From Escherichia coli (GTDB lineage Bacteria > Pseudomonadota > Gammaproteobacteria > Enterobacterales > Enterobacteriaceae): 64,000 nt of DNA. The DNA lies in NCBI RefSeq assembly GCF_041248615.1, contig NZ_CP158426.1; one strand, written 5' to 3'. The translations under genes and the position numbers were made by a program. This document shows positions 781-41,217 of this stretch, one piece after another. Position 1 is the stretch's first letter. Every line of letters starts with the position of its first letter. Under the pieces are notes generated by a model that saw only the letters and a program-made list of their open reading frames with translations, was not told the DNA's origin and ran no database searches.

Positions 781-790
781 TATTTAAGTT

Positions 791-823
791 AGCCCCAAGA
801 GAAATGAAAATTCTCAATGGGGC
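791..823. terminator. Inverted repeat between the convergent portal and RES genes (AGCCCCA...TGGGGCT with inner GAGAA/TTCTC)
   Basis: Nested palindrome read directly in the 52-bp gap between two convergent stops; weak T-run, so terminator function is tentative. Confidence 0.3.
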
Positions 824-832
824 TATTATCAC

Positions 833-1984
833 TTATTCAACTTCATCGTAATAAATCTCCCATTGATCATTCATACCAACAACCTGCTTTTCCTCGTAAA
901 TATACTGAACCTTGTCAATTTCTATTACTTTTGATGAACCATCTATAAATTCCATACATGAAGGATTAAAAACAACCAAGTTCTTACCTTTACCAACTGT
1001 ACTTGAAAATTGTATACCATCATACCCCTCTTTCCTTATACAATCAGATATTAGTTGGGACACACTATATCTTCCTTCTAAGGAAGGTGGAGTTGCAGTA
1101 TTAAAAATACCTGCCATCTTTGCATATGGTATCATGGATAATAAACTTTCATCACTCTCAATAAACTCTAAAAAATTAGGATAAGAAAAATCGAATACCT
1201 TTAATGCTTTTGCAACTCTAAATTTACCAATTGAAACAACATCTGTTGGATGAGGTCGAACTTCCGCAATTGCAGTATAACTATCTGTAGCACAATAAAG
1301 GTAAGAAACGCCTGCTCTATTAGCCCTGCCAGCAGTAGCCTTTAGTGGTGGCACGGCTCCTATTTCCTTATCTTTAAATGGAACAAATATTTTCTTTCCT
1401 TCACGGCTAAATCCCCTAAGTGCTGTTTTATAGCCAGCAGTCCCAACTCTGGCTCTATATACCACAGAACTTCCTTCTATTATCTTCGAAAAAATATCAC
1501 CATAACCTTTTATAATACTTCTTAGCTCACCTTCAAAATCATGGTAATTCTTTTCTGAAAGCTGTTTTGACAAAGAATCTAAAAATGGCTGATGTGCATT
1601 TCTGATAGACATATATGGCGTATTATATAGACCATCAGATCCATAGCCTGCATAAATATTTATTCCCTCACTATCAAATGCCATATCCCACAATTCGCTA
1701 TCGAGTTCCCCAAAAGATTCATCATGCTCCTGTATATCCTTGGTGAAAATAAAATCATCTTCCAATAGAAAACTCGGGTAATACTCCCCTCCAAAATGAG
1801 TATTGTAATCGACTTCATCATAATGATATCTCAGAATAGCTTTCAACAAATTACGTACTTCTGAAGAATCAGTATCTAAACAAACAGTATCTGCACAACA
1901 AAAAGCACAAATACCTCGTATATTTTGCGAAAAAATTAGTTTTTTTATATTTGATTCAACAATGTGACTTTCGCAGATATACAT
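833..1984 (-). CDS. RES-domain protein with Cys/His-rich N-terminal domain (putative NAD+-targeting toxin / abortive-infection effector); AT-rich cargo gene
   Basis: C-terminal half carries the RES signature: VYRAR, AGRANRAGVSYLYCATDSYTAIAEVRPH (R..N..G...LY.A.......E) and DGIQFSSTVGKGKNLVVFNP (conserved Ser, N.vvF). N-terminus has C-x20-C-x2-CC-x4-C. AGGAG sits 6 nt upstream of the second ATG (1984). Markedly AT-rich versus flanking phage genes. Confidence 0.6.
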   Translation of the reverse strand: MYICESHIVESNIKKLIFSQNIRGICAFCCADTVCLDTDSSEVRNLLKAILRYHYDEVDYNTHFGGEYYPSFLLEDDFIFTKDIQEHDESFGELDSELWDMAFDSEGINIYAGYGSDGLYNTPYMSIRNAHQPFLDSLSKQLSEKNYHDFEGELRSIIKGYGDIFSKIIEGSSVVYRARVGTAGYKTALRGFSREGKKIFVPFKDKEIGAVPPLKATAGRANRAGVSYLYCATDSYTAIAEVRPHPTDVVSIGKFRVAKALKVFDFSYPNFLEFIESDESLLSMIPYAKMAGIFNTATPPSLEGRYSVSQLISDCIRKEGYDGIQFSSTVGKGKNLVVFNPSCMEFIDGSSKVIEIDKVQYIYEEKQVVGMNDQWEIYYDEVE

Positions 1985-2044
1985 CATAATCTCCTTGAAT
2001 TTTACCTTACATGCTCATTATTGCCACTTTAGCTTGCGCGCGCA

Positions 2045-2063
2045 ATCGTATCCCCGCCACGCC
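2045..2063 (-). other. cos-like cohesive-end sequence of P2/186 type (bottom strand GGCGTGGCGGGGATACGAT)
   Basis: Bottom strand matches the recalled 19-nt 186 cohesive end GGCGTGGCGGGGAAAGCAT at 15/19 positions (first 13 contiguous). Lies in a GC-rich non-coding block with a perfect 12-bp palindrome TTGCGCGCGCAA at 2034-2045. Located between the early-region end and the portal gene, where cos is expected. Confidence 0.5.
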
Positions 2064-2349
2064 TGCCCGCTTTATGTAGCGGTTTTCATGCAGGTGCATG
2101 ATCTACGCAAAATCCCACCAGTTCTGGCGGGCCTTAGCAAAAACGATCCGCAAACGATCATGCGATCTCATGCGGCATAGTCATGCACTTACGGGGGAAC
2201 TGAAATCCAGTAACCGAATGATCGCTTGAAAAACGAAACATACGTACTTACAAAGCACAAAGCCTGCTTTGAGCGAAGCGGACATTAATAATGTTGCTGA
2301 CCATCCCTAGTACTTCTCATAATATATCCGTATGTTAATCAACAAAATA

Positions 2350-4242
2350 TTAATTTGTCCCATCACTAAAGAATTTGATTGCGTCAGTTAGTACATAGTC
2401 AATGAAAAATTTTACGTGAAAGACCTGAAAAACGCTATTTTCTGAGTTTTTAATGAAATCTACAGCTATATCTTTTAGGTTGATCAACCAGTTATATTCT
2501 TCAATCAGTCTAGTTCTGGCATCCGCATCAGAATAACGACTCCGTAAGCTAAATGCCAGTTTCCTCATGATAACTGGATCAAGTTTCCTATAGCTTTCAA
2601 TGAAAACATCAGCAGGAACTAAGTGTAAAAAAGGTACATCATGAAGATTTAACTGTCTATTATTAGAATGACTCAATTCAGATAACAACGATAATTTTCC
2701 CCTTTGTAACTCATCTCTGAACTGCAATGCAAATTCCGAAATTGAATCATCAAACCGTTTCTTCCTTTCTATTTTAATATGTTCAATAATGAGCTTAAAG
2801 TCATCACTATCCCTGTCAAGAAAACCTAAACCACGCCATGCCCTTAATTCGTTATAATGTGTTTGCGCATATTCCTTATGTACATCTTCAGCTCTAAGTC
2901 TATTATAATAATTATTTATATTCTGTTTTGTCTCATTTATGAGATCATGAACATCATCTGTTGTTAGACCTTCTTTCGCCATTTCCAGCAAAATACTCGC
3001 TGTCATCAGAAGTTCACCTAAGGAAGTGATCTTACCTGAAAACAGGTTATCCTTAGCAATAGCGTACTGCTCATAAAGCATAGTTTCATTTAGTTCTCTA
3101 TAGTTCCACAAATACTCCCATGCTTGGGAATCGCTGCTTCTAAAAAATCGCGTAATATCCAACTGAGCAAGAAGATCACCCGTTACCTTTCCATCACAGA
3201 TTAGTTCTCTCCAAGACGCACCATCCAGTAACTTCTCGGTTAATACAGGAGACGAATATTTCTCGACAATCATGTCATACTTACTTTTGACACGTTCTTT
3301 ACCCAAAAACATACCATAATTAACATTGCCGATTGAATTGAAATCCTCGTAACTAAGATTCCCTCCCCGGTACTCCATCGAAAAAATTAACAATTGATGA
3401 AAAAACACCCTTATAAATTCATCGTTACTTACATATTTATCTCCCAAAAGGGAAATAATTCGTTGTACATCGAGAAAGAACTGCCTCAAGTGTCTTAGAT
3501 TATTATAATTCGCTGACACATAGAGGTCCTCTATTGTCTGCATATCTTCTTTAAATATATTAGCAACATGCAAACTACTAATTACGTTCAAAAAAATCTT
3601 ACAAGCACTATGTAAATCTGACGTTACTTCAAATGTTTTACCTACTAGCTTTTCTTTTGTTCTCATGTATTCATTGCGAGATTTCTCATCATCATTATTT
3701 ATTCGCTTTTCTCTATTGATTATTTCATCTTCATTGGCAACCAAGATCGCTTTGTATCCGTTTACCTCTACAAAGTGATTTATATATCCAAATAAGATTG
3801 GTAAATCTACACCAGCTCTCTCGACATCATCAAAGACCAGCACAAAACCATCTGGTTTTCTAGTAAAGTCGCTAAGATTAATGGTGGGAACATTGCTATT
3901 GACATCTACGTCAGATTTATTATCGCCATTAAGATCGATCTTGAAAGTAGCCTTAAGCGTATTTTTTAGTACATTTGCACCAAAGATAAGGGCTTTGTTT
4001 GATAGGACAGGATGCAGTTGACGATAGAACTCATCTTCAATCTGCTCAATAGAGTTGACGCCATACAAGCTCACTTTTAGAAATTTGAACTCTGAATGTT
4101 TCTGCCTATATTCTTCAAGAACTCGTTCAATGAACCAAGTTTTACCTGATCCCCAAGCACCTTTAAGCATAATGGCGTATTGAGGTTCAGTTTTAAGGCT
4201 AAGGTAATATTCTAGATAGTCTTTGATGTACGTATTGTGCAT
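2350..4242 (-). CDS. KAP-family P-loop NTPase (candidate anti-phage defence cargo in the tin/old-equivalent hotspot)
   Basis: Walker A GAWGSGKT in the KAP-type GxWGxGK[ST] context and Walker B-like hhhhDDVER (VLVFDDVER); about 630 aa. AT-rich. Start taken at the MHNTY Met (4242); the track ORF extends to 4293 with no RBS. Confidence 0.65.
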   Translation of the reverse strand: MHNTYIKDYLEYYLSLKTEPQYAIMLKGAWGSGKTWFIERVLEEYRQKHSEFKFLKVSLYGVNSIEQIEDEFYRQLHPVLSNKALIFGANVLKNTLKATFKIDLNGDNKSDVDVNSNVPTINLSDFTRKPDGFVLVFDDVERAGVDLPILFGYINHFVEVNGYKAILVANEDEIINREKRINNDDEKSRNEYMRTKEKLVGKTFEVTSDLHSACKIFLNVISSLHVANIFKEDMQTIEDLYVSANYNNLRHLRQFFLDVQRIISLLGDKYVSNDEFIRVFFHQLLIFSMEYRGGNLSYEDFNSIGNVNYGMFLGKERVKSKYDMIVEKYSSPVLTEKLLDGASWRELICDGKVTGDLLAQLDITRFFRSSDSQAWEYLWNYRELNETMLYEQYAIAKDNLFSGKITSLGELLMTASILLEMAKEGLTTDDVHDLINETKQNINNYYNRLRAEDVHKEYAQTHYNELRAWRGLGFLDRDSDDFKLIIEHIKIERKKRFDDSISEFALQFRDELQRGKLSLLSELSHSNNRQLNLHDVPFLHLVPADVFIESYRKLDPVIMRKLAFSLRSRYSDADARTRLIEEYNWLINLKDIAVDFIKNSENSVFQVFHVKFFIDYVLTDAIKFFSDGTN

Positions 4243-4563
4243 TTTTAGTCCATTTTGATAAAATACATAAACATAGATGGTAAGTAGAGCCAAAGGCCAA
4301 CTATGGAAAACTCAATCGGTAGTGTACATTGTAAGGTTATTATTGGTAAATATTATAGGAATACCCATAATCTAACAAAATTCAGATTATCCGTTGCAAA
4401 TTAGTCTGCCATTCGCTAATTGACGAAAGATAGCACAAGAAACGTTCGCTTCTGGCACAAAGCGGACGATCACTTATAAAAATGACCGCCCACCTTACGC
4501 CTTATTTCACTCGTTGCCCAAACTAGCCCCCATTAGAATGAATCCTCCTAGGGGCAACGTTTC

Positions 4564-4797
4564 TTAATGCAGCCAGCTGTCATCTTCCCACACTTTCTGC
4601 ATAATTTTCATTACTTGTTTTCTTTCTTCGTCCAGTTGCAGTCCGGTTAGTTCCACACCGTTAGAGCTACCTTTGCGGATACGAATTACCGTTTTGGAAT
4701 ACAGGGGGCGCAGATTGCGGTAAAGCTCGGATTCAAGGGCGTCCAGGGTAGACTGGCTAATCTTCTGCTCTTTATCGATCATTATTTCAATGCGCAT
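4564..4797 (-). CDS. DinI-family protein (resembles E. coli DinI and the DinI-like domain of phage 186 Tum)
   Basis: MRIEIMIDKEQ...LDALESEL...IRIRKG...LTGLQLDEERKQVMKIMQKVWEDDSW aligns by eye with DinI (MRIEV.IAK...IDAL..EL......V.VR...LSV.G...E...I.EILQETWE.ADDW). GAGGTG RBS 7 nt upstream of ATG at 4797; track ORF 4564-4869 is an upstream extension. Confidence 0.6.
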   Translation of the reverse strand: MRIEIMIDKEQKISQSTLDALESELYRNLRPLYSKTVIRIRKGSSNGVELTGLQLDEERKQVMKIMQKVWEDDSWLH

Positions 4798-4807
4798 AAA
4801 AGTCACC

Positions 4808-4996
4808 TCAGCTGATGACATCCATTGAGCGGTTGTATTCGTGGCTTCTGATTTTTGCCATGAGTTCATCAGTCAATTCAGAAACCCACTGCAGAGCCAG
4901 CCCCTTCTCTTCATCACTACACTCACTAGCCGCTACAAGCTTAAGAAAAAAATCAATGCGCTGGAGCTTCAAAGACTCCAAAAAATAGTCCTGCAT
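4808..4996 (-). CDS. Small phage protein of unknown function, first gene of a two-gene unit with the DinI-like gene
   Basis: 62-codon ORF with AGGAGG RBS 5 nt upstream of ATG; its stop lies 10 nt before the DinI-like start. Confidence 0.45.
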   Translation of the reverse strand: MQDYFLESLKLQRIDFFLKLVAASECSDEEKGLALQWVSELTDELMAKIRSHEYNRSMDVIS

Positions 4997-5039
4997 CTTT
5001 CCTCCTATGACACCACACGCAATTCTGTATGTATAACCA

Positions 5040-5055
5040 CTGTTTATATTTACAG
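5040..5055 (-). promoter_or_regulatory. LexA-box-like motif (bottom strand CTGT-N8-ACAA) upstream of the small-protein/DinI-like pair
   Basis: Top strand TTGTTTATATTTACAG; on the coding strand this is CTGTAAATATAAACAA, one mismatch from the CTGT-N8-ACAG SOS box, about 45 bp upstream of the start codon. Confidence 0.3.
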
Positions 5056-5149
5056 TATATAATAATCCTACTGATGTAAAACGTTTTTTTACGCTTATCA
5101 GCCTGATATGCCTGGTATTATTAAGAGCACGAATTGTTAACCCGCGTAA

Positions 5150-7564
5150 TTAATACAGGTTCCGCCACTGATCATCTTCCTGCAAACGTTGGTTCCGATA
5201 GAAGATACGCAGGCCTGCTCCTGACGGAATACTGCCGCCACGAAGGAGTAAATAGACCTCTTTCTCGCTGCCATCAAATCCTCTGGACTTCAGTTCATAG
5301 ACAAGCTGCTGTCGCTGATGGTCTGTAATTCGCTGTTTGTAGTCTTTACGCCGTTTCGGTTTCACCAGGCGTAACCTTGCAGCCAGTTCCCGGCGCTCTT
5401 TTTTGCTCATACTGTGCAGGTATTCGTGCAACTCCTTGTCATCCATGCGGGTGATATCCGTTCTGGTATCTCCATCAGCTGATTTGTCTTTCCCTTGTTG
5501 GTACAAATTTTCAGCAAGGGGACAGTTATTGCCACGAGTCCAAGGGGCGCAAGCGCCCTGGTCGGCTGCCGCCTCCTGAACGTCAACGGCCTTACGAACC
5601 ATTTTCCACTTCACTGCATGAGTGCAGATCTTGCCCTCTGCAATGGGTGACCAGATGCCATAAATACGAATGCCGTGATCGCCATAGGCGGTCGGCTCTT
5701 CGTTAATTTCATAAGCAGTTCTGATGAGGTGATATTTGCGGGGAACCAGTACGCCGCCCTGCTTCATGATGTAAGTGGCAAAACAACCAGCATCAGCAGC
5801 AGCCAGGATTGCATCAAGGCGCGGGTTATCCAGTACCGGCGCACCTGCTTTTTTGTCCCCCTGTTGCCTTGCCGCCTGACCAGCCAGCAATCGCAGTTCA
5901 CGGTAAGCCTGACGCCCCGGAATGCCAAAGAAGCGGAATTGCTGAACACGATGCAGAGACGCCCAGGCATTAACGTATTCAGCGTTATCACGCAGGGATT
6001 TACCCGTTTCCTTGCTGATCTCGCCAGCCAGACCACGCCCGTCAATGTTCTTACTGATGTATTTCGCGATGTAGCTTGTTGGCGTACCTTTGCGCGGGTT
6101 TATCAGCTCAGACTTAAAGCGTGGTCCCGTGTTATTCCCCAGCTCCTCGCGGTCTTCACGAATGGCAAACTTACGCAATAAAGCAGTAATGGCGCGGCGA
6201 TCTTTTTTGCGCATAAAACACAACAGGTGCCAGTGAACTGTACCGTCATGATGCGGCTCAGCCACCCGCACGCCATACCACCGCAATCCGGCTTTGTGCA
6301 TCGCCTTACGAAATGCAGCAAACATGCCGACCAGATAATCACTGCTTTGTTTTACCGTCGCATTTGTCCAGGTTGGGTTGGGCCTGCCGTTATTTAGCGT
6401 GGAATGGAAACGTGACGGACAGGTGATGGTGTAGAAAACGGCGCAGTCACCGCGCATTTCCGCGATAAGCTCCAGACCTTTAACACAGGCCATCATCTCA
6501 TTGCGGCGATGCGCAGGGTTGCTGCTGCTGGCGTTTACCACATCCTCCATGTCCAGCGTGTCGCCGTCTTCGTTCACCAGTTCATGAGAACGGAAAAACT
6601 CCAGCGACTTACGGCGCTGCTCACGTTTATGCATCACGGCTTCATAGCTGACATAGGGGGATGCTTTTTTGCTAACCAGGCAGACAGCGCGCAACTGCTC
6701 TTCCCGCCATTCGCAACGCATCTTCCATAATTTCCGATACCACCAGTCGGCGCACAACATACGCGCCAGCGAACCCGGAATGAGTTCATAGGGCACGGGT
6801 TTACGGCGGTTTCTTTTCCGGCGGAGTTGCTCAAACGCAGGTGGGATGACATCCAGACGCAGGGTTTCCGCCGCCACCCTTTCCCATGTCTTGCGGATTT
6901 CTTCTGGCTTAACGTCATCGGTGGCATACAAATCGCCACAAGCTGCATCAAGGCACATGCTCATATGCGCAGCAACAAGGGTGGACAGGCGTTTCACCTG
7001 ATCCTGACTCATTTCAGGCAGAATCAGCAGGCCGTCCAGCCCTTCATGGCTTGCCATAAAGCGAAAAGAAGTGGATAGCTGACTGTCGCGTACATGCTCC
7101 AGCCGTTCCAGACATGGCTTAATCGTCTCACGCAAATAGCGGGAATAAGCCTTTGGCCTGCCAAGGCTACTGAAGTATTCAATACGTTGCATCAGCGGCT
7201 TGCTGATATGGGAGGGCTGGGCGCTGACGTCTGCCAGAATGACCATGTCCGGGTTAAAACGCTGCTGCTCATGCGCCAACTTTGCCCGGCTAATGAGCTT
7301 ATCCTGCTCCATTTCGCGCTGGACAGGATCACGGGATTCATTAAAGAAATAACGCTCCCAGACCTGATCACTCAGTGCCTCGCGGCGCAGTTGTTCCTGC
7401 TCGTTATCGGCAGCGTACAGAGTGATCAGGTTTGAAAGCGCAGAAACCGGCGCAACTTCCGCCGGGTCCAGATAAGGGTTAATAGCCTTTTTCGGGCTGT
7501 TCCATGAGAATGCTGCGGCGGCCTCGTTAAAGCCGCTGCAGTTGTTCATATCAGCATGGCTCAT
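5150..7564 (-). CDS. Phage replication initiation endonuclease (P2 gpA / 186 A family, rolling-circle)
   Basis: 804-aa ORF; size, early-operon position and C-terminal region resemble P2-family A proteins. Start overlaps the Dam stop by 4 nt. Confidence 0.8.
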
Positions 7565-8418
7565 GCACGCACTCCGTACACGGCAGAACTATCCACGCCA
7601 CGCGAAGGATCAAATCCCACCCAGCAGCGCGCCCCAGAAACAGCGATGATTTCTGTTGCAGATTTACTCTCACCAGTTGCTACGCCGATGCTGCGTTTTG
7701 CCTTGATGTAGTGGTGAGTAAAATTGCGATACAGCGAACGGATCAGGGATGTGTCACTGTTAGAAACAATGACCGGATGTCCTTCTGATGACCGATGTTC
7801 AAGAACGGATGCCAGGTGATACTGGTCATCTTCAGTGAAGCCGTCAGTGTGATAACCGGAAAACGTGCCGTCATACGGCGGATCGCAATACACCACATCC
7901 CCCGCCTTCAACATCGCCAGCGTTTCATCAAAGCTGGCGCAGATAAACGTTGCCCGCTGGGCTTTTTCTGCAAATGCGCGAATTTCTTTTTCAGGGAAAT
8001 ACGGATTTTTATAATTACCGTAGGGAATGTTGAAATGCCCGCTCTTGTTATAGCGACATAAACCACGGTAACCGTGACGATTGAGATACAGGAAATATAC
8101 CGCTTTCATGAAATCAGTAATTTCAGTTGAGTAATTAAACTCCTGCCTTATGTTGTAATAAGCCACCTCCCTGTTTGCTTCCTCAAATAAAGCTCTGGCG
8201 CGAGATATAAACAATTCACAATCAGCGGCAACCTTTTTATAGAGGTTGATTAAATCAGGATTAATATCCGCAACCAGATAGCTGGGGTAATCCGTCTCCA
8301 TCATCACTGCACAGGAACCCGCGAAAGGTTCAACCAGTCGCGGGCCAGCAGGAAGGTGTTTTTTCAGTTCTGGCATAATGGCGGTTTTATTTCCCGCCCA
8401 TTTCAGGATGGTGCTCAT
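7561..8418 (-). CDS. Dam-family N6-adenine DNA methyltransferase (phage-encoded)
   Basis: N-terminal [11 protein letters not shown]...EPFAGS (SAM-binding) and catalytic DPPY (VYCDPPY); start at the internal Met overlaps the upstream stop (ATGA). Confidence 0.85.
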
Positions 8419-8642
8419 ACAGCACCTCCGTTGTAATGTTTGCCTTTCAGCTCTGCGATTTCCTGACAGGTAATGCAAAGCTGCACTCCAAGAATGGCGC
8501 GGCGTCGTGCTGGCGGAATTGGCGCTTCACATTCAATACAAAGCACGCGGGACACGCCCGGCGTTTTGGCACGGGCAGCACGGATATGACGCTGGCGTTC
8601 TTCTTCAACGCGCTGCTGTACGAGATCCATTGCATCAGCCAT
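8415..8642 (-). CDS. TraR/DksA-family C4 zinc-finger protein (P2 orf82-like)
   Basis: 75 aa with CIECEAPIPP...CITCQ four-Cys motif; typical early-operon position. Confidence 0.7.
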   Translation of the reverse strand: MADAMDLVQQRVEEERQRHIRAARAKTPGVSRVLCIECEAPIPPARRRAILGVQLCITCQEIAELKGKHYNGGAV

Positions 8643-8881
8643 CAGTGGATCTCCTGCGCTTCGTTCTGGATTGCTTCAGCAGTCACACGCAGCAGTTCTG
8701 CCGCTTCGACGTGGTTTAGCTGGCGGGATGTGATATGACACGCAAGACTATCAAGGCGGGCAGCCATTGCTTCAGCCCTTGCCCGGCGTTCTTCCAGACG
8801 AGCCTCTGTCAGTAAAATATTAAGCCCTGCGTCATCCGGTCCGGTTTTGGTCGTGAGGGTTTCAATATTACGCATAATCAA
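8642..8881 (-). CDS. Hypothetical phage early protein
   Basis: 79-codon ORF translationally coupled to the downstream gene; no recognisable motif. Confidence 0.4.
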   Translation of the reverse strand: MIMRNIETLTTKTGPDDAGLNILLTEARLEERRARAEAMAARLDSLACHITSRQLNHVEAAELLRVTAEAIQNEAQEIH

Positions 8882-8942
8882 TTCTCCTGAATTTAGATAA
8901 AGGGATGCCTGGCGGGTTTACGCCATTAATTTCATTAGTTGG

Positions 8943-9284
8943 TTAATTCGGCATGGTTAGCCGTCTGGGAAATAAGCTCACCACTGCACGAAAATGATTC
9001 ATTGCTTTAATCAACTCCCGCTTTTCGTCAGTGGTCAGCTCATTAATGCTGATGCTATGACGTTCAGCTGGAATTTTTGCCATAAAGAATATGGCAGCCA
9101 GTGCCCGTTTATTTTGTTCGCTATTAATATCCCGTGGATCACGCATATCTTTAATAAACCGTTCAAGCTCTGACTCAATATTCAGACCAAAAACTTTCGC
9201 CCTTAACTCCGCAATGTGATTAAGTCCATTCAGGCGTTCACCGGGGCTTAATGGAACAGTCGCCGCAGCGCCTTCAATAGCCAT
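8943..9284 (-). CDS. Hypothetical phage early protein
   Basis: 113-codon ORF in the early operon; start uncertain. Confidence 0.4.
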   Translation of the reverse strand: MAIEGAAATVPLSPGERLNGLNHIAELRAKVFGLNIESELERFIKDMRDPRDINSEQNKRALAAIFFMAKIPAERHSISINELTTDEKRELIKAMNHFRAVVSLFPRRLTMPN

Positions 9285-9448
9285 TTGTTCCCCCGTTTTT
9301 TCGTAGATAGTTCTGCCAGCAATTCATCTTGTGAACGGCACGGATGCCAGCGTTTACCATCCTCACCCATGATCCAGCCGTGACCGTAGTGCATTGCCGG
9401 GCTTTGTTTAACAAGCAGCGATGCAAATGATGGTTCTTTCGTAAGCAT
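9248..9448 (-). CDS. Hypothetical small phage early protein
   Basis: 66-codon ORF starting 8 nt after the CII stop with GAGGTG upstream; overlaps the next ORF, so the call is tentative. Confidence 0.3.
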   Translation of the reverse strand: MLTKEPSFASLLVKQSPAMHYGHGWIMGEDGKRWHPCRSQDELLAELSTKKRGNKWLLKALRRLFH

Positions 9449-9455
9449 AAGCACC

Positions 9456-9965
9456 TCACAGCAAACCGAATGAAGCACCGAGGCCAGTCACGGTATCAAC
9501 TGCACTCGCCATCGCAGGGTTAGCCTGTAAACGGGCCTGCAATGAAACAGCAGCCAGCGCCATCAGTCGTGTTACAGAGTTAATGCTGCTGATAGCATCA
9601 CGACGACCTGCACTGGTTTTTACATCGCCAGATACCGCACCTGCAGCAACACGCCCGATCTCTGCGGTTGCACTCATGACGTAATGCGGCAGTTTCTCTT
9701 TTGCTACCTCATTAATCGGAACACATGGCAGGCAGTGAATCTGTGCCAGAAAACCATCTACCAGCGTTGAATCTTCAGTCAGATCGGTAAGCAACCAAAT
9801 TTCTGGTGCGGTTAATAAATGAGGTTGAGCTGGGTTCAGTTTGTTCCGCAGAATCTGCACATTCATACCTGCACGTTCTGCCAGTTGCACCAGATTGTGG
9901 CGCAGTGCGAATGCACGACAGGCTTCATCAAAATGTGGATGTTTGGAAACTTGGTAATCAAACAT
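9456..9965 (-). CDS. CII-like lysogeny-establishment transcriptional activator (phage 186 CII family)
   Basis: N-terminus [24 protein letters not shown]...[25 protein letters not shown] closely matches the recalled 186 CII sequence; first gene-pair position of the lytic operon. Confidence 0.8.
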
Positions 9966-9997
9966 GGTCAATGCCTCTGATGTATTTCAGAATCGAA

Positions 9998-10219
9998 CTA
10001 ATTAAGGTTTAGATTGCATTCTGAAAGCGCATCAACGGTCATGGCTGCTATGTTGATCATCACTTTTTCGCGTTTTTTATCTTTGCGCAAACGGTGACGG
10101 ATAAGGCGTCCATCAGCCAACATGTCATTGATGGTATCGATGGACAGCCCTGTCAGCTCGCTATAGCGTTCAATAGTCACATGAGGCGTGGTAAGAGTGA
10201 TTGAAATGTTAGGTCTCAT
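9998..10219 (-). CDS. Apl/Cox-like excisionase and lytic-operon repressor
   Basis: 73-aa basic protein, first gene of the lytic operon and divergent from CI, as apl/cox in 186/P2. Confidence 0.55.
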
Positions 10220-10344
10220 GATGCAACATTCCTCGTTTAATGATGATTAATCAGGACGAATACGGATCGTTTGTATTTTGTGAACACCATAAACATACGA
10301 TCGCACAATGAAATCGTCAAGACAAAAGTTCACTTGGAGTGACC
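10220..10344. promoter_or_regulatory. Immunity switch region between apl and cI (expected pR/pL promoters and CI operators)
   Basis: 125-bp divergent intergenic region containing repeated ACGATCG-type elements; assignment by analogy to 186. Confidence 0.45.
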
Positions 10345-10914
10345 ATGAATTTGGAGAAAGGCGGACGAGGCGCTATAGAGCGCATGGTAGAAGCTTATGG
10401 ATTCAAGACTCGACAGGCGTTGTGCGATCATTTAGGAATCTCTAAAAGTACACTCGCCACACGCTACATGCGTGACTCATTCCCCGCAGAATGGGTAATC
10501 CAGTGCGCCCTTGAAACGGGCACCTCGCTTAATTGGCTCACAACCGGGCATGGTTCAAAGCAAACTTCAGGTAATACAAATACTATGGAAGTTGCTAAAT
10601 ATGTATTATCTGATGGGGCCTTGTGTGAAGACGGTTTTTATATTTTCGATAGGGGATTTCTACCGTCGGCATTCAAGAGTCTTTTTGTAATCACAGATAA
10701 TAATTCTGAATGTATTTGTGATAAGGAATTTGATGATATACGTGATGGTAAATGGGTAATAAGTATTGATGGTGAAATAACGATCCGTGACATTACTCGT
10801 TTACCCGGCGGAAGAATCTTCGTCGAGGGTGGAAACAGAGCGTTCGAATGCAAGATAGAAGACATTGAAATAATTGGTAAAATTATAAGTTTAACAGTCA
10901 AGTATGTTAAATAG
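10345..10914 (+). CDS. CI immunity repressor (phage 186 CI family)
   Basis: ERMVEAYGF...CALETGTSLNWLTTGHG...GKWVISIDGEITIRDITRLPGGRIFVEGGNRAFECKIEDIEIIGKII parallels the recalled 186 CI sequence; GGAG RBS before ATG at 10345 (track ORF starts at GTG 10339). Confidence 0.85.
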   Translation: MNLEKGGRGAIERMVEAYGFKTRQALCDHLGISKSTLATRYMRDSFPAEWVIQCALETGTSLNWLTTGHGSKQTSGNTNTMEVAKYVLSDGALCEDGFYIFDRGFLPSAFKSLFVITDNNSECICDKEFDDIRDGKWVISIDGEITIRDITRLPGGRIFVEGGNRAFECKIEDIEIIGKIISLTVKYVK

Positions 10915-10929
10915 TACCGGGAGGAAACT

Positions 10930-11121
10930 ATGCTTGGTAAGGTATTTTTTGTGGTTTTGTCATGTTCTTTGTTATTAAACCCACTAACTACCTATGCTAG
11001 AAATTATCCCTGTTCAGGGAAAAAGGGAGGTGTTTCTCACTGTACCTCAGATGGCAAATTCGTTTGCAATGATGGAACTATTAGTAAATCCAAAAAAATC
11101 TGTACTAAAAACTCACGATAA
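10930..11121 (+). CDS. Small secreted Cys-containing peptide (possible moron) between cI and int
   Basis: 63 codons; strong RBS GGGAGG 6 nt before ATG; N-terminal signal-peptide-like segment ([23 protein letters not shown]) followed by about 40 residues with four Cys and many Lys. Confidence 0.5.
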
Positions 11122-11309
11122 CTTTTGCTTTTATATCTGCGCCTAAAATAAAAATGAGCCGCAGGTTAACCGCAAAAGTTACATGCTCACATAGCAAAAA
11201 GAATAGCCAACTTAATTATGGCTTCAGTGAGATGTATGGTCGTAGGATTTCATACATTGACACTGGTTATACATACAGTGAAAATGCTCTCTACTGGAGG
11301 GCATTTTTT

Positions 11310-12362
11310 ATGGCAGTACGAAAACTCACCACAGGGAAATGGCTTTGCGAATGTTACCCCGCCGGACGTAATGGGCGTCGTGTGCGTAAACAATTCGCCA
11401 CCAAAGGCGAAGCACTGGCCTTCGAGCGATACACCATGGGGGAAATAGAAGCAAAGCCCTGGCTGGGCGAATCAGTGGATCGTCGGACACTGAAAGATAT
11501 GGTTGAGCTATGGTTCAAATTACATGGCAAATCTCTTACTGCCGGACAGCATGTCTACAACAAGCTGCTGTTGATGGTTGACGCCTTGGGAAATCCCCTT
11601 GCAACTGATCTCACCTCAAAAATGTTTGCTCACTATCGCGATAAACGCCTTACTGGTGAAATCTACTTCAGTGAAAAATGGAAGAAAGGAGCAAGCCCAG
11701 TTACTGTTAACCTGGAGCAAAGCCATCTAAGCAGCGTTTTCAGAGAACTTTCCCGCCTGGGTGAATGGACACTTCCAAACCCATTAGAGAAGATGCGCAA
11801 ATTCACTATCGCAGAAAAGGAAATGGCATGGCTTACACATGAGCAGATTATCGAATTACTGTCTGACTGCAAACGTCAGAACCCAATTCTGGCACTGGTG
11901 GTAAAAATATGTCTAAGTACAGGTGCACGTTGGCGAGAAGCAATCAATCTTGCTCGCTCACAGGTCACCAAGTACCGAATCACCTTTGTGAGAACGAAGG
12001 GTAAGAAAAACAGAAGCATCCCTATCAGTAAAGAGCTTTATGAAGAGATAATGGCGCTCGATGGGTTCAATTTCTTCACAGACTGCTATTTTCAATTTTT
12101 ATCCGTGATGGAAAAAACGTCTATCGTTCTCCCTCGCGGTCAACTGACACACGTTCTGCGCCATACGTTTGCGGCGCACTTCATGATGTCGGGTGGAAAC
12201 ATCTTGGCCTTACAAAAAATTCTCGGACATCACGATATAAAAATGACTATGCGTTATGCGCATCTGGCACCGGATCATTTGGAAACGGCGCTCCGTTTCA
12301 ATCCACTGGCAACGTTACCAAATGGCGACAAAGTGGCGGCAGCGGTTGGCATTACCCCGTAA
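11310..12362 (+). CDS. int: Phage tyrosine integrase
   Basis: Catalytic residues in TGARWREA, HVLRHTFAAH and MRYAHL; GGAGG RBS before ATG at 11310 (track ORF starts upstream at 11154); last prophage gene, about 100 bp from host rcdA. Confidence 0.9.
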   Translation: MAVRKLTTGKWLCECYPAGRNGRRVRKQFATKGEALAFERYTMGEIEAKPWLGESVDRRTLKDMVELWFKLHGKSLTAGQHVYNKLLLMVDALGNPLATDLTSKMFAHYRDKRLTGEIYFSEKWKKGASPVTVNLEQSHLSSVFRELSRLGEWTLPNPLEKMRKFTIAEKEMAWLTHEQIIELLSDCKRQNPILALVVKICLSTGARWREAINLARSQVTKYRITFVRTKGKKNRSIPISKELYEEIMALDGFNFFTDCYFQFLSVMEKTSIVLPRGQLTHVLRHTFAAHFMMSGGNILALQKILGHHDIKMTMRYAHLAPDHLETALRFNPLATLPNGDKVAAAVGITP

Positions 12363-12421
12363 TAACCACCACTGACCACCACATTAAGTTATTGTTTTTC
12401 ATCTAACTTATTGTTTTTATT

Positions 12422-12447
12422 AACCCATTTAGATAAGTGGGTTTTTT
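12422..12447 (+). terminator. Rho-independent terminator after int / att-junction hairpin (AACCCA-N10-TGGGTT + TTTTTT)
   Basis: Stem-loop followed by a six-T run; its 3' part TGGGTTTTTTGTT equals the recalled 3' end of the E. coli RybB sRNA terminator. Confidence 0.5.
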
Positions 12448-12466
12448 GTTATCTAAAATTTATCTA

Positions 12467-24647: not shown

Positions 24648-24677
24648 AATGTTTGCAAATGATTTACCACATTCATT

Positions 24678-24701
24678 AGTACCCCTTGATTAAGGGGTAC
24701 T
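24678..24701. terminator. Bidirectional hairpin between the antitoxin gene and dgcI (AGTACCCCTT-GATT-AAGGGGTACT)
   Basis: Perfect 10-bp stem read directly between two convergent genes. Confidence 0.5.
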
Positions 24702-24716
24702 AACACTATTCTAATT

Positions 24717-28578: not shown

Positions 28579-29490
28579 CTATCCTTTAATTTTCGGATCC
28601 AGCGCATCGCGTAAACCATCACCCAACAAATTGAACGCCAGTACAGTCAGAAAAATAGCCAGGGCCGGAAAAATAGCGACATGCGGCGCGATAACCATAT
28701 CCGCTCGTGCCTCATTGAGCATTGCTCCCCACTCTGGTGTCGGCGGCTGCGCACCGAGGCCGAGAAATGACAGGCTGGCGGCAGAGATAATCGAGGTACC
28801 GATGCGCATGGTGAAAAACACCACGATAGACGAGACGGTCCCAGGCAAGATATGACGCAATAAAATGGTCATATCGCTGGCACCAATACTGCGTGCTGAC
28901 TCAATAAAGGTTTGCTGTTTCAACACCAGCGTGTTGCCGCGCACCAGTCGGGCAAACGCGGGGATGGAAAAAATGGCGACTGCAATAATCACGTTAGCAA
29001 TGCCGCTTCCCAACACCGCAACAACAGCGATCGCCAGTAAAATACCCGGGAAGGCAAACAGCACATCGCAAATGCGCATGATCAGCCGATCCCACCAGCC
29101 TTCATAATATCCAGCCAACAAGCCCAGCAACGTCCCGATCGCCGCACCGATAAACACGGCAAACACGCCCGCCGCCAGCGAGATTTGTGCACCAACCAGG
29201 ACACGGCTGAAAATGTCACGCCCCAGTGAATCAACGCCAAACCAGTGCTGCAAAGAAGGTCCGTTATTCAGATTGTCATAATCGAAATAATTTTCGGCGT
29301 CATAGGGAGCGATCCAGCGTGCAAAAATGGCCACTACAATCAATAAAATAACGAATAATGCGGCGGTCATCGCCATATGCTGACGGCGAAATCGTCGCCA
29401 GAATTCATGCCACGGTGTACGTACCTGGTCAGGTTTGACCAGTGGCATGGCGTTTAACGCCGCCTGACGTCGCCAGTTAAATAGTCGCAT
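28579..29490 (-). CDS. gsiD: Glutathione ABC transporter permease GsiD
   Basis: 303 aa permease; synteny. Confidence 0.9.
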
Positions 29491-29492
29491 CC

Positions 29493-30413
29493 TTACTTGT
29501 ACCTGATAGCCGGGTTAATGGCGGCGTAAAGCACATCCACCACTAAGTTGATAAGAATAAATTCCAGCGAGAAAAGCAGAATTTCCGCCTGAATCACCGG
29601 GTAATCGCGCATTTCTACGGAGTCAACGAGTAAGCGTCCAAGTCCGGGCCAGTTGAAAACTTTCTCCACCACGATGGAACCACCGAGCAAAAAGCCAAAC
29701 TGTAAGCCCATCATGGTCACTACCGGGATCATCGCGTTGCGTAGCCCGTGTTTGAGGACAACCCAGGTTTCGCTCACCCCTTTCGCCCTCGCGGTACGCA
29801 TATAATCTTCGCTTAAAACATCGACAAACGACGCGCGGGTAAAGCGCGCCATCACGGCTGCCACTGCCGCGCCGAGCGTCAGGGAGGGTAAAATGTAGTG
29901 CTGCCAACTGTCTGCTCCCACGGTAGGCAGCCAGCCCAGTTCAACGGAGAATACCTGAATTAAAAGCATCCCCAGCGCAAATGCCGGAAACGAGATCCCC
30001 GACACCGCAATGGTCATACTCAATCGATCCGGCCAACGATTACGCCAGACGGCGGCGATAATTCCCGCCGCCATACCAAATATCACCGCCCAGACCATAC
30101 TGGTTATGGTCAGCCACAGCGTTGGCATAAAGCGGCTGGCAATCTCATCGGCAACCGGACGACGCGACACCATCGACAGGCCAAAATCCCCCTGCACAGC
30201 ATTGCTGATATAGTGCCAGAACTGGTGATACAGCGGCTGATCCAACCCCAGCTGCTGACGCACCAGTTCTATAACCTGCGCATCAGCTTCGGGCCCGGCA
30301 ATCAATCGCGCCGGATCGCCGGGCAGCATATGCACAAATAAAAACACCAGCACCGAGACGATAAACAGCGTCGGAATCAACCCCAGCAAGCGTTTGATAA
30401 CGTAATTAAGCAT
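29493..30413 (-). CDS. gsiC: Glutathione ABC transporter permease GsiC
   Basis: 306 aa permease; synteny. Confidence 0.9.
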
Positions 30414-30430: not shown

Positions 30431-31969
30431 TTATTGCAAATCCGCGTCTTCAAAGCTGAAGCCGGTGTCTGGCATGATCCAAAAACCGGTCAGGTTTTTA
30501 CTGTGTGCCGACACCAGTTTTTCTACCACCAGCGGGATCCACGGCGACTCTTGCCAGATGATATCCTGCGCCGCCTTATATAAACGGGTCTTTTCTGCCG
30601 GATCATTAGTTTTCAGTGCCTGAGCCAGGAAATCATCCACCTGTTTATTGCTGTAAAACGCGGTATTAAACAGCGTCGGTGGCCAGTTCTGCGAGGCAAA
30701 CAGCGGCGATAGTGCCCAGTCCGCTTCGCCGGTTGAAGCCGACCAGCCAGTGTAGAACATCCGCACGCCGCTCTCTTTTTGCCCTTTACCTTCAACTTCT
30801 GCCGCCCGCTGTCCGGCATCCATCGCAGTCACCTGGGCTTTAATCCCGACCTGCGCTAACTGCTGCTGGGTAAATTGCAGCACTTTCTGCGCGGTGCTGT
30901 GGTTATGTGACGACCACAGCGTGGTACTGAAACCGTTGGGATATCCCGCCTCTTTCAGTAATTCGCGCGCTTTCACTGGATCGTAAGGCCACGGTTTATA
31001 ACTTTGCGCGTAGGCGATACTCGGCGGTACCACACCAGTAGCTGGCGTTGCATAGCCCGCGAAGGCTACTTTCACCAGCGCCGGGCGGTTAATGGCGTAA
31101 TTCAGCGCCTCACGGACCTTCGGGTTATCGAACGGCTTTTGCGTCACGTTCATACTGATATAACGCTGCATAATTGACGGACTGGCCATCAACTCGATAT
31201 TTTTGTTTTTCTCCAGCAGTGCGGCCTGCTCGTAGGGAATGGGGAAAGCAAACTGCGCTTCACCGGTTTGCAGCATTGCCGCGCGGGTATTGTTATCCGC
31301 CACCGGACGCCAGGTTATGCTGTCCAGTTTGGGCAATCCTGGCTGCCAGTAACCCGCGAATTTTTTCACCTTCACAAAATCGGTCTGATTCCAGGTATCC
31401 AGTTCATACGGCCCGGTTCCCACCGGATGAAAACCAATCTCCTTGCCATATTTTTCCAGCGCTGCCGGCGAAATCATCGCGGTCGCCGGATGGGCAAGAA
31501 TATTAATAAACGCTGAGAACGGCTGTTTGAGGGTAATCTTTACCGTTGTTGGATCGATCGCTTCCGTTTTGGCAATATTCTTATACAGGTTGTAGCGTTT
31601 AAGATGATTCGCCGGATCGCTGGCCCGGTCCAGATTCGCTTTTACCGCCGCTGCGTTGAAGTCGGTGCCATCCTGGAATTTAATGCCTTCCCGCAATTTC
31701 ACGGTGTAAGTAAGGCCGTCATCGGAAACGGTATAACTCTCCGCCAGCACGTTTTTCAGTTTCATCTCTTTATCGAGACCGAACAGCCCCTGGTAAAACG
31801 ATTTCGCTACGGCCTGAGATAACGTGTCATTTGCGTCATACGGATCGAGCGTGGTGAAGTTCGATCCTACCGCCACCACCACATCTTTGGCAGCGAATGC
31901 ACAAGATGCCATCAACGCTGTCGCAATGCCCAGCGCCACTAACCCACTACGGTGTACAGCTCTTGCCAT
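30431..31969 (-). CDS. gsiB: Glutathione-binding periplasmic protein GsiB
   Basis: 512 aa from MARAVHRSG with signal peptide; the 601-aa track ORF is an upstream extension. Confidence 0.9.
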
Positions 31970-31988
31970 TTTATTCTCCGCCTGAATG

Positions 31989-33860
31989 TTATCTACGCAT
32001 GAATGCGTATTCTGATTGTGGTTGTGCGACGTAATGCCCCGGCCCGACGCATTGCAACGAGACGGCTGCCACCTCTTCGCCACGCAGATGAATATTGCTG
32101 GGAAGATCGTCCGACAGCAGTACACGCTGCGGTCGTTGTCGGGACGGTTCAGCGACCGGAACTGCCGCCAGTAATTTACGCGTATAAGGATGCTGCGGGT
32201 TTTCGAAGACCGCGCGCCGTGGACCAATTTCAACAATTTGTCCGAGATACATCACCGCCACACGATGACTAATCCGCTCTACCACGGCCATATCGTGGGA
32301 GATAAACAGATACGCAATGCCGAAATCACGCTGGAGATCGAGCAACAAGTTGATAATCTGCCCGCGAATAGAAACATCCAGCGCCGAGACGGCTTCGTCG
32401 GCAATGATCACTTTTGGATTCAATGCCAACGCGCGAGCAATGCAGATGCGCTGGCGCTGACCGCCGGAAAACTCATGCGGGTAACGCCAGGCATGTTCAG
32501 GTAACAGGCCCACGCGCTCCAGCAACCACGCAACGCGTGCAGCCGCTTCTTTACCTGGCAATAAACCGTGTACGCGCAGCGGTTCGATAATCGAATCACC
32601 GATGGTCTGACGTGGGTCCAGCGAAGCGTAAGGGTCCTGAAAAATAAACTGAATATCCCGGCGCAATGCCTGAAGTTTACCGGATGACAAGGTATCGATT
32701 CGCTGACCGTTAAAGATAATTTCGCCGCCCTGCGATTCGACCAGGCGCAGCAACGCCCGCCCGGTAGTGGATTTACCGCTGCCAGACTCGCCCACCAGCG
32801 ATAGCGTTTCGCCAGGCCAGAGATCAAAACTGACTTTCTCAACGGCATGCACTTCCCGCGTTACGCGATTCAACAAACCGCTGCGCAAAGGGAAACGGGT
32901 GACCAGATTACGCACCCGTAAAACAGGTTCGCCATCCACCACCGTTTTCTGCTCGATGGGTGGTTCCTGTTTGGCTGGATGTTCAAGCGATATCAATGGG
33001 AAACGTCGGGGATAATCTAACCCTTTCATCGCACCAAGTTGCGGAACAGCAGCTAACAGCGCACGGGTGTAAGGATGTTGCGGTGCATGAAAAATCTGTT
33101 CGACGCTACCCGTTTCCACCGCCTCGCCCTGATACATCACCAGTACCCGATCGGCAATCTCTGCCACCACGCCCATATCGTGAGTGATAAAGATAACGCC
33201 CATCGACATCTCTTTTTGCAATACTTTGATTAATTGCAGGATCTGCGCCTGAATAGTGACATCCAGCGCGGTGGTTGGCTCATCGGCAATCAGCACCGCC
33301 GGGCGGCATGACAGTGCCATCGCAATCATCACTCGCTGGCGCATCCCGCCAGAGAGTTGATGCGGATAACGTGAAAGAATGGTTTGTGCCTCCGGAATGC
33401 GTACCTGATCCAGCATCCGCTTCGCCTCGACCATTGCTTCTTCACGACTGGCGTTTTGATGCAGACGAATTGATTCGGCAATCTGTTCACCCACAGTAAA
33501 TACCGGGTTCAGCGATGTCATCGGCTCCTGAAATATCATCGCCATATCCGCACCGCGCACATGGCGCATTTGTGCAGCGCTCTGCTCGCTAAGTTCAATC
33601 ACTTCGCGACTGCGCCGCCGCAACAGCATTTGATCGCACTGCACTAAACCGCCCGCCTGTTCCAACAGGCGCATCAATGCCAGCGCAGTCACTGACTTAC
33701 CGGAGCCAGATTCGCCAACAATTGCCAGCGTCTCACCGCGTTGCAGGCTAAAAGAGAGATTGCGGACCGCAGCTATTTTCTGCTGGTCCTGCATAAAGGC
33801 AATATTCAGATTTTCAACCGCCAGCACATCACCGGCATCAAGTTCATCACTGTGTGGCAA
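31989..33860 (-). CDS. gsiA: Glutathione ABC transporter ATP-binding protein GsiA (two ABC domains)
   Basis: Two Walker A motifs (GESGSGKS twice); 623 aa if initiated at the TTG corresponding to the recalled K-12 N-terminus (M)PHSDELDAG. Confidence 0.85.
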
Positions 33861-34812
33861 CGGTGTCCCCTTTTTCACGGTAGATACCGGTGGTTGGCGT
33901 ATCGCCTGCGTAGCCCCAGGCGCGATACATTCCTTCGGTGTTAAACGGTAGCGCGATATTACCTTCATGGTCGATAGCGATTAAGCCACCGCTACCGCCA
34001 AGCGCAGGGAGTTTTTCCATTACTACCCGCTCGCAGGCTTCCGCGAGACTTAATCCGCCGTAATCCATTAACGCGGCGATGTCATATGCCGCCAGCGCGC
34101 GGATGAAGACTTCGCCCGTACCGGTACATGAAACCGCCACACTGGCGTTATTGGCGTAGCATCCGGCCCCCACTAAGGGACTATCGCCAACTCGTCCGGG
34201 TAATTTATTGGTCATTCCGCCTGTGGACGTGGCTGCCGCCAGATTGCCGTCTAAATCCAACGCCACGGCCCCCACGGTGCCCATTTTCTGTTTTTCATCC
34301 AGTGGCGCACCGCTATGGTCGAGGACTGTTGCCCCTTCCTCACGCGCTGCCATTAGTTGTTCATAACGCAAAGGCGTGGAGAAAATCTCCGGTGAGACGC
34401 GCTCCATGCCATGAGCAAACGCAAAATTTTCTGCCCCTTCGCCAATCATCATCACATGCGGGCTTTGCTCCATCACCAGCCGGGCGGCAAGAACCGGATT
34501 ACGCAGATGACTAACGCCCGCCACCGCACCGGCTTTCAGGGTGTTACCATCCATCACACAGGCGTCCAGTTCATGGGTTTCATCACGCGTAAAGACAGCG
34601 CCAATTCCGGCGTTAAACAGTGGACACTCTTCCAGCAGACGCACCGCTTCCGTCACCACATCCAGCGCACTTTCGCCCGCTACCAGCATTTTCTGCCCGG
34701 TTTCAACAATGGCAGACAACGCCTCGATGTAGCGTAATTCCTGTTGCAGACTCATCTGCGCGCGGCTAATTGCACCTGCGCCACCATGAATTGCAATGAC
34801 TGCTTTGCCCAT
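33847..34812 (-). CDS. iaaA: Isoaspartyl dipeptidase / L-asparaginase IaaA (Ntn hydrolase)
   Basis: 321 aa; autoproteolytic GTVGAVA region; synteny. Confidence 0.9.
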
Positions 34813-35015
34813 AGTATTCGTCCATTAAGGGTGGCTCGCCACTTTTGCTATAAATATCAGAATTTTTATGAATTACTCATTCAATTTTTGAATATAGAAA
34901 GATGGATATGGCATGTAAAGGCAGGAGCCAACGCTACGCCCGAGGTGGCATACAGTCTGTGGCGTTTTTCTGACATAATAGGCAAATTCGATTTTGCCTC
35001 CGCAGGAGTGTTTTC

Positions 35016-38784: not shown

Positions 38785-41217
38785 ATGACCACACTGAAAC
38801 TGGACACGCTCAGCGATCGCATTAAAGCGCACAAAAATGCGCTGGTGCATATTGTGAAACCGCCGGTCTGTACCGAGCGCGCGCAGCACTATACCGAGAT
38901 GTATCAACAACATCTCGACAAGCCCATTCCGGTACGTCGCGCGCTGGCACTGGCGCATCACCTGGCGAATCGCACCATCTGGATCAAGCACGATGAGTTG
39001 ATCATTGGCAACCAGGCAAGCGAAGTTCGCGCCGCGCCGATCTTCCCGGAATATACCGTCTCATGGATCGAAAAAGAGATCGATGATCTGGCAGATCGTC
39101 CCGGTGCTGGCTTTGCGGTGAGCGAAGAGAACAAACGCGTTCTGCATGAAGTGTGCCCGTGGTGGCGCGGTCAGACCGTACAGGATCGCTGCTACGGCAT
39201 GTTTACCGATGAGCAAAAAGGTCTGCTGGCGACCGGCATCATTAAAGCGGAAGGCAATATGACCTCCGGCGATGCGCACCTGGCGGTCAATTTCCCGCTG
39301 CTGCTGGAAAAAGGGCTTGATGGTCTGCGCGAGAAAGTAGCGGAACGTCGCTCGCGCATCAACCTGACGGTGCTGGAAGATTTACACGGTGAGCAATTCC
39401 TGAAAGCGATTGATATCGTGCTGGTGGCAGTCAGTGAACACATTGAACGTTTCGCTGCCCTGGCGCGTGAAATGGCCGCGACCGAAACCCGCGAAAGCCG
39501 TCGCGATGAACTGCTGGCGATGGCAGAAAACTGCGATCTTATCGCCCACCAACCGCCGCAGACTTTCTGGCAGGCGCTGCAACTGTGTTACTTCATCCAG
39601 TTGATTTTGCAGATTGAATCTAACGGTCACTCCGTATCTTTTGGTCGTATGGACCAGTATCTGTACCCGTATTATCGTCGCGACGTTGAACTCAACCAGA
39701 CGCTGGATCGTGAACACGCCATCGAGATGCTGCATAGCTGCTGGCTGAAATTGCTGGAAGTGAACAAGATCCGCTCCGGCTCGCACTCAAAAGCCTCTGC
39801 GGGAAGTCCGCTGTATCAGAACGTCACTATTGGCGGGCAAAATCTGGTTGATGGTCAACCAATGGACGCGGTGAATCCACTCTCTTACGCGATCCTTGAA
39901 TCCTGCGGTCGCCTGCGTTCCACTCAGCCTAACCTCAGCGTGCGTTACCATGCAGGAATGAGCAACGATTTCCTCGACGCCTGCGTACAGGTGATCCGTT
40001 GCGGCTTCGGGATGCCGGCGTTCAACAACGACGAAATCGTGATCCCGGAATTTATTAAACTCGGTATTGAACCGCAGGACGCTTACGACTATGCAGCGAT
40101 TGGTTGTATCGAAACCGCCGTCGGTGGCAAATGGGGCTATCGCTGTACCGGCATGAGCTTTATCAACTTCGCCCGCGTGATGCTGGCGGCGCTGGAAGGC
40201 GGTCGTGATGCCACCAGCGGCAAAGTGTTCCTGTCACAAGAAAAAGCGTTGTCGGCAGGTAACTTCAACAACTTCGATGAAGTGATGGACGCGTGGGATA
40301 CGCAAATCCGTTACTACACCCGCAAATCAATCGAAATTGAGTATGTCGTCGACACCATGCTGGAAGAGAACGTACACGATATTCTCTGCTCGGCGCTGGT
40401 GGATGACTGTATTGAGCGAGCGAAAAGTATCAAGCAAGGCGGCGCGAAATATGACTGGGTTTCTGGCCTGCAGGTCGGTATTGCCAACCTCGGCAACAGC
40501 CTGGCGGCAGTGAAGAAACTGGTGTTTGAACAGGGCGCGATTGGTCAGCAACAGCTGGCTGCCGCACTGGCGGATGACTTCGACGGCCTGACTCATGAGC
40601 AACTGCGTCAGCGGCTGATTAACGGTGCGCCGAAGTACGGCAACGACGATGATACTGTCGATACGCTGCTGGCTCGCGCTTATCAGACCTATATCGACGA
40701 ACTGAAACAGTACCATAACCCGCGCTACGGTCGTGGTCCGGTTGGCGGCAACTATTACGCGGGTACGTCGTCTATCTCCGCTAACGTACCGTTTGGCGCG
40801 CAAACTATGGCAACGCCGGACGGGCGTAAAGCCCACACCCCGCTGGCAGAAGGCGCAAGCCCGGCTTCCGGTACTGATCATCTTGGCCCTACTGCGGTCA
40901 TTGGCTCAGTGGGTAAACTGCCTACGGCAGCGATTCTCGGCGGCGTGTTGCTCAACCAGAAACTGAATCCGGCAACGCTGGAGAACGAATCTGACAAGCA
41001 GAAACTAATGATCCTGCTGCGTACCTTCTTTGAAGTGCATAAAGGCTGGCATATTCAGTACAACATCGTTTCCCGCGAAACGCTGCTGGAGGCGAAAAAA
41101 CATCCCGATCAGTATCGCGATCTGGTAGTGCGCGTCGCGGGCTATTCCGCCTTCTTCACCGCGCTCTCTCCAGACGCTCAGGACGATATCATCGCCCGTA
41201 CTGAACATATGCTGTAA
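38785..41217 (+). CDS. pflF: Glycyl-radical enzyme PflF (YbiW), PFL-like
   Basis: 810 aa with C-terminal glycyl-radical motif ([10 protein letters not shown]); synteny. Confidence 0.85.

Follow-up and report, generated by a model that had tools for sequence, protein, structure and literature searches.

The iaaA-gsiA junction and its probable operon

The DNA analysed here (referred to below as the window) is a stretch of 64,000 nt from Escherichia coli, contig NZ_CP158426.1, in which iaaA and gsiA are both carried on the minus strand. The iaaA coding sequence occupies positions 33847..34812 and specifies an isoaspartyl/beta-aspartyl peptidase of 321 aa; it was identified from the list of open reading frames, from annotation and from the NCBIfam IaaA equivalog NF007589, which is matched at 711 bits over residues 1-321 of 321. 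Its 3' end reads GTT GCC ACA CAG TGA, the stop codon TGA lying at 33849-33847. In the gsiA frame, a TTG codon can be read directly from the window sequence at 33860-33858. From this TTG to the gsiA stop at 31989 there are 1872 nt, which gives a coding sequence at 31989..33860 for a protein of 623 aa, the double ABC ATPase of the glutathione importer. The frame, one base out of phase with iaaA, begins TTG CCA CAC AGT GAT GAA CTT GAT GCC GGT GAT. The sequence-only reading had placed the gsiA start 14 nt inside iaaA, and direct reading bears this out: the overlap at 33847..33860 comprises gsiA codons 1-5 and iaaA codons 318-321 together with the TGA stop.

The longest open reading frame delimited mechanically at gsiA is larger than this. 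It extends over 31989..33968 (659 aa) from an ATG at 33968, and is bounded just upstream by an in-frame TAA at 33983-33981. The NCBIfam GsiA equivalog NF007613 is matched over its full length with 1377.7 bits (cut-off 1077), and positions 1-623 of the 623-position profile align to residues 37-659 of the 659-aa frame. Two tandem ABC ATPase domains are seen as well: the DppD, OppD, OppF, NikD and NikE models, from relatives with a single domain, each match the long frame twice, at residues ~48-313 and ~345-627.

Further open reading frames at 30431.., 29493..30413 and 28579..29490 provide the gsiABCD context in the window, and the order iaaA, gsiA, gsiB, gsiC, gsiD is annotated in both K-12 and strain TUM14771. 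The mechanical gsiB frame (30431..32236, minus strand) opens at a TTG within gsiA and spans 601 aa. As annotated, gsiB has 1539 nt (512 aa) and starts 19 nt past the gsiA stop, so that the longest open reading frame again overstates the gene. It was described previously that iaaA belongs to the gsi operon (PMC10355420). A scan for promoters and terminators returned no more sites than were found in shuffled sequence (6 sites, 7.4 in the shuffles); a promoter-like site scoring 10/12 lies upstream of iaaA at 34919..34891, and none was found inside the iaaA 3' end. Since the two genes overlap by 14 nt, there is no room for a terminator between them. Together with the promoter-like site upstream of iaaA and the published operon description, this suggests that iaaA and gsiABCD are co-transcribed.

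The start codon of gsiA

Comparison with the curated K-12 annotation and ribosome profiling had both been proposed as checks on the TTG, and in both cases the result agrees with it. In the curated record of K-12 MG1655 (NC_000913.3), gsiA (b0829, NP_415350.2; formerly yliA) is placed at 867520..869391 with its start codon, the identical TTG, at 867520, and iaaA (b0828) at 866568..867533, the curated overlap being 14 nt. The genes, the TTG, the Shine-Dalgarno sequence and the overlap are all as in the window, and the 60 nt around the gsiA start are identical; residue 11 of GsiA differs, being Asp (GAT) in the window and Asn (AAT) in K-12, a strain polymorphism. The same 1872-nt gsiA with the same TTG start is given by the PGAP annotation of TUM14771, a strain that does not differ from the window across the 801-nt junction query. 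Of 5426 complete E. coli genomes, 5425 are matched by this query; iaaA and gsiA are annotated in 29 of the 30 E. coli matches listed. Over the 60-nt junction, identity reaches 99% or more in 5131 of 5422 E. coli genomes.

Initiating ribosomes in K-12 were mapped by tetracycline ribosome profiling (TetRP) by Nakahigashi et al. 2016 (PMC4909307). In row 8 of Table S2 of that work, yliA (gsiA) is assigned a new initiation site at 866743 (U00096.2), a TTG shifted by -33 nt relative to the 2006 start; depths there are 46.3, 140.5 and 70.6 in three samples, as against 0, 0 and 2.98 at the 2006 GTG start. Table S3 of the same paper lists the change of the gsiA start from 866776 (2006) to 866743 (2014 record), again -33 nt and in agreement with TetRP. 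The K-12 site has the sequence of the window, and initiating ribosomes are found on UUG there. As for N-terminal peptides, the column for gsiA in Table S2 is blank; in the available part of the TRAINSPOTTER N-terminomics study (PMC13245402), the N-terminus of IaaA is present and that of GsiA absent. The main text of the Ribo-RET paper (10.1101/520783) mentions neither gsiA nor iaaA.

Candidate starts were scored by how strongly the 3' end of 16S rRNA pairs with the 20 nt in front of each. Five in-frame NTG codons were compared: ATG 33968 (-36 codons), GTG 33878 (-6), TTG 33860 (0), GTG 33827 (+11) and ATG 33794 (+22). The TTG is preceded by a Shine-Dalgarno sequence AAGGGG at 33867..33872, within iaaA codons 314-315 and with a spacer of 6 nt, which was recognised both from the 16S pairing and from its counterparts in relatives. 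Its energy of -7.8 kcal/mol is equalled or bettered by just 3.2% of 2700 positions in iaaA plus gsiA. The other candidates reached -4.9 kcal/mol at a useless distance (ATG 33968), -3.0 (GTG 33878), -3.0 (GTG 33827) and +0.4 (ATG 33794). GTG 33878 has no Shine-Dalgarno sequence and is missing from the other Escherichia and Citrobacter loci, and was rejected; ATG 33794, likewise without a Shine-Dalgarno sequence, was rejected too.

A scan with one genome per species provided 80 loci, in most of which, out to Burkholderiales, iaaA lies directly upstream of gsiA. The start codon was compared in 27 loci, those with a GsiA N-terminus that can be aligned to residues 1-3. At the position homologous to the TTG, 22 of them have an NTG (TTG in 9, GTG in 7 and ATG in 6), and AAGGAG, TAAGGAG or AGGAG stands in front of this position in nearly all of the 27 loci. 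Because the Shine-Dalgarno energy falls in the top 3.2% and NTG and Shine-Dalgarno sequence are kept together across genera, the TTG is more than a chance occurrence. In 14 of the 27 loci an in-frame stop precedes the start by less than 36 codons, and in Lelliottia, Enterobacter MGH24, Enterobacter Ag1, Cedecea and Siccibacter it is located just 4-6 codons upstream, which makes a longer GsiA impossible in these organisms. In addition, GsiA residues 2-7 (PHSDEL) are conserved, with synonymous codon changes, in species in which no other gene covers them.

Two other starts have to be weighed against the TTG. The GTG at 33825..33827, which is gsiA codon 12, was the official K-12 start from 2006 until 2014 and was later abandoned; beginning 33 nt downstream, it would give a GsiA of 612 aa without any overlap with iaaA. 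GTG is commoner than TTG as a start codon, and this Val codon is kept in almost all relatives. Nevertheless, TetRP depth at the GTG is 0/0/2.98 when it is 46-140 at the TTG, the pairing energy of -3.0 kcal/mol amounts to no Shine-Dalgarno sequence, and the GsiA family profile includes the 11 preceding codons. These codons are also conserved as protein, PHSDEL being maintained through synonymous changes in species that have no overlapping gene there, which argues against the old GTG start. It is therefore very improbable that gsiA starts at this position. The ATG at 33966..33968, within iaaA codons GAC CAT GAA, would yield the 659-aa product, with 36 N-terminal residues read out of frame from the 3' part of iaaA. 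It is canonical, opens the longest open reading frame and, besides E. coli, is present in one other Escherichia and three Citrobacter loci; moreover, TetRP compared NTG codons up to 60 nt from the old start (PMC4909307, Table S2), and this ATG, 108 nt upstream of the TTG, falls outside that range. It has, on the other hand, no Shine-Dalgarno sequence at usable spacing, the ATG at -36 is missing in E. albertii, the upstream in-frame stops exclude the extension in 14 of the 27 related loci, the family profile begins at residue 37, and neither the curated K-12 annotation nor that of PGAP uses it.

What the extension itself encodes was judged from a gapless alignment of seven Escherichia/Citrobacter loci. 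The 108 nt preceding the TTG contain 35 variable columns, and 28 of these coincide with third codon positions of iaaA, equivalent to second positions in the gsiA frame; the extension thus varies almost solely at iaaA third positions. Mean pairwise amino acid identity over the same seven loci is 61% in the gsiA frame vs 94% in the iaaA frame. On this pattern of substitution, the 36-codon extension is to be regarded as constrained in the iaaA frame only and non-coding in the gsiA frame. The expectation that the 659-aa frame is probably not used thus stands, and this start, which we consider slightly less probable still than the GTG, is close to refuted.

Taken together, annotation, TetRP, the Shine-Dalgarno sequence, the NTG kept across species and the boundary of the family profile agree on the TTG at 33858..33860, decoded as fMet, as the start of the 623-aa gsiA, as had been supposed, and this start is strongly supported. 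It was already known from the curated K-12 record since 2014, from PGAP and from a published map of start sites, and to find it here is an ordinary result. Its relevance lies mainly in annotation quality: GsiA gains 36 spurious residues under the rule of the longest open reading frame, and it lacked 11 real ones in the K-12 record before 2014. The locus is also a textbook case of TTG/GTG/ATG turnover at a fixed position, and of how a frame-specific substitution pattern rejects an extension of an open reading frame.

Probable origin of the overlap and possible link to iaaA translation

The 14-nt overlap is invariant in all seven Escherichia/Citrobacter loci. In these, the sequence GAA AAA GG(G/A)G is found where Leclercia, Lelliottia, Enterobacter, Phytobacter, Superficieibacter, Pseudocitrobacter, Siccibacter and one MAG have GAA TAA GG(A/G)G. 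According to the alignment and a table of C-termini, iaaA codon 314 (AAA, Lys; 33871..33873, minus strand) is homologous to the TAA stop of other Enterobacteriaceae. In the seven TAA genera and the MAG, IaaA ends ...GIY(R/Q)E, followed by TAA, and the gsiA start comes 9-11 nt after that stop. Most Enterobacteriaceae have such an embedded TAA, 9-13 nt ahead of gsiA. Escherichia/Citrobacter IaaA carries an 8-residue C-terminal tail, KGDTVATQ, and its TGA lies inside gsiA, 11-13 nt beyond the first base of the start codon; the tail is absent in other Enterobacteriaceae because their iaaA stops at TAA where Escherichia/Citrobacter have AAA. The junctions of Leclercia, Lelliottia, Enterobacter, Superficieibacter, Pseudocitrobacter and Siccibacter have the same gene order, the same place of the Shine-Dalgarno sequence and a homologous start position; they differ in having a gap of 9-13 nt in place of the 14-nt overlap, an IaaA shorter by 8 residues, and a gsiA start that is sometimes ATG or GTG instead of TTG. 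In other lineages, iaaA and gsiA overlap by 1 nt (TGATG/TAATG) or by 8 nt. Wherever iaaA is upstream among the tabulated loci (22 of 22), its stop falls in the interval -13..+14 nt relative to the gsiA start.

From these alignments, the overlap most likely arose through a change of the iaaA stop from TAA to AAA at codon 314 in Escherichia/Citrobacter, with the gsiA start unchanged. The direction of the change would follow from parsimony over a few genera. Salmonella, with an IaaA of 313 aa, would belong to the TAA state. Such an origin by stop loss would be a minor addition to the known picture, and a textbook case of a gene overlap born of a stop-codon change. It could further be supposed that the overlap is a lineage-specific innovation, in which loss of the iaaA stop changed the way the UUG is fed with ribosomes (backward in place of forward re-initiation) and retuned the ratio of IaaA to GsiA. 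With the stop loss, iaaA termination would have been shifted from a point 10 nt ahead of the first base of the gsiA start to one 11-13 nt beyond it. We consider this reading unlikely, and a minor 659-aa isoform of GsiA made from the upstream ATG less likely still.

Initiation at gsiA may proceed as follows. On a single mRNA covering iaaA-gsiABCD, the AAGGGG sequence 6 nt upstream of the UUG at 33860-33858 would position the 30S subunit, both elements being contained within the last eight codons of iaaA. Ribosomes that complete iaaA may assist the start at the UUG: they might hold the site unfolded, or terminate and then re-initiate. The product would begin fMet-Pro-His-Ser-Asp-Glu-Leu, and the N-terminal Met is probably removed from GsiA since Pro follows it.

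Close spacing of stop and start has been linked to translational coupling in established work, and coupled overlapping pairs are a known class in bacterial operons, for example those with termination-reinitiation at ATGA/TGATG junctions. The iaaA/gsiA pair has the geometry of such overlapping pairs, with both genes on the same strand, the iaaA stop beyond the gsiA start and the Shine-Dalgarno sequence inside iaaA. In the classic coupled pairs, likewise, the neighbours share a strand, the downstream Shine-Dalgarno sequence is in the upstream gene and the stop is near the start. They commonly overlap by 1 or 4 nt, whereas the overlap of iaaA and gsiA is 14 nt, and the likeness is one of gene geometry. 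On these grounds, translational coupling from iaaA to gsiA is plausible.

An alternative that keeps the TTG start is that initiation at gsiA is independent of iaaA translation: the Shine-Dalgarno sequence would direct de novo binding of the 30S subunit, and the overlap would be a by-product of the change in the iaaA stop. A good Shine-Dalgarno sequence at ideal spacing is in keeping with this, and so is the fact that relatives manage with a gap of 9-13 nt, which implies that the overlap itself is not required. RNA structure points the same way. In E. coli a junction hairpin encloses the Shine-Dalgarno sequence and the TTG (-44.4 kcal/mol, z = -2.1); it is not kept in Citrobacter, and across 12 species no conserved occluding RNA structure was found, the consensus having -4.7 kcal/mol and lacking the long-range stem. 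Since it is not conserved, the hairpin was rejected as a mechanism linking iaaA translation to exposure of the start. Against independent initiation, the iaaA stop is no more than 14 nt from the gsiA start in 22 of 22 tabulated loci, a geometry that established work ties to coupling, and a weak UUG may profit from a locally high concentration of ribosomes. Coupling and independent initiation driven by the Shine-Dalgarno sequence are about equally likely; for the latter taken by itself, we would put the chance at somewhat below even.

The preferred reading of the locus as a whole is that the UUG at 33860-33858 initiates a 623-aa gsiA, that the overlap with iaaA is derived, and that the genes lie on an iaaA-gsiABCD mRNA on which ribosomes leaving iaaA may help; this we hold to be very probable.

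Prophage and other loci in the window

At gathering threshold, an Rfam scan of all 64 kb returned no RNA family. Positions 1..12362 of the window form one end of a P2-like prophage, the end nearest the integrase; the site of insertion is the rybB sRNA locus beside rcdA. The prophage genes include an integrase at 11154..12362 (plus strand), a replication endonuclease at 5150..7564 (minus strand), a CI repressor, a Dam methylase and a portal fragment. The junction between prophage and rcdA is near 12363-12470; there the body of the K-12 rybB is replaced by the prophage, and homology resumes at the terminator T-tract. K-12 and TUM14771 are without this prophage, and at least 80% of the prophage junction is common to 768 of 5426 E. 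coli genomes.

Phage relatives cover 61-62% of the 12.4-kb prophage query. Between the portal and replication modules, at 833..4293 (minus strand), there are two cargo genes. One, at 2350..4293, encodes a KAP-family P-loop NTPase with a match (E = 3e-156) to PDC-S49, a candidate defence system in PADLOC; the other, adjoining it at 833..1987, encodes a RES-domain protein for which PADLOC gave no match. Judging by these domain matches, the pair looks like cargo of a P2 defence hotspot. Elsewhere, related genomes carry a RelE/ParE-family toxin and an HTH antitoxin between dgcI and rimO; the region concerned, 39354..40059 in TUM14771, corresponds by homology to positions ~24200-24900 of the window.
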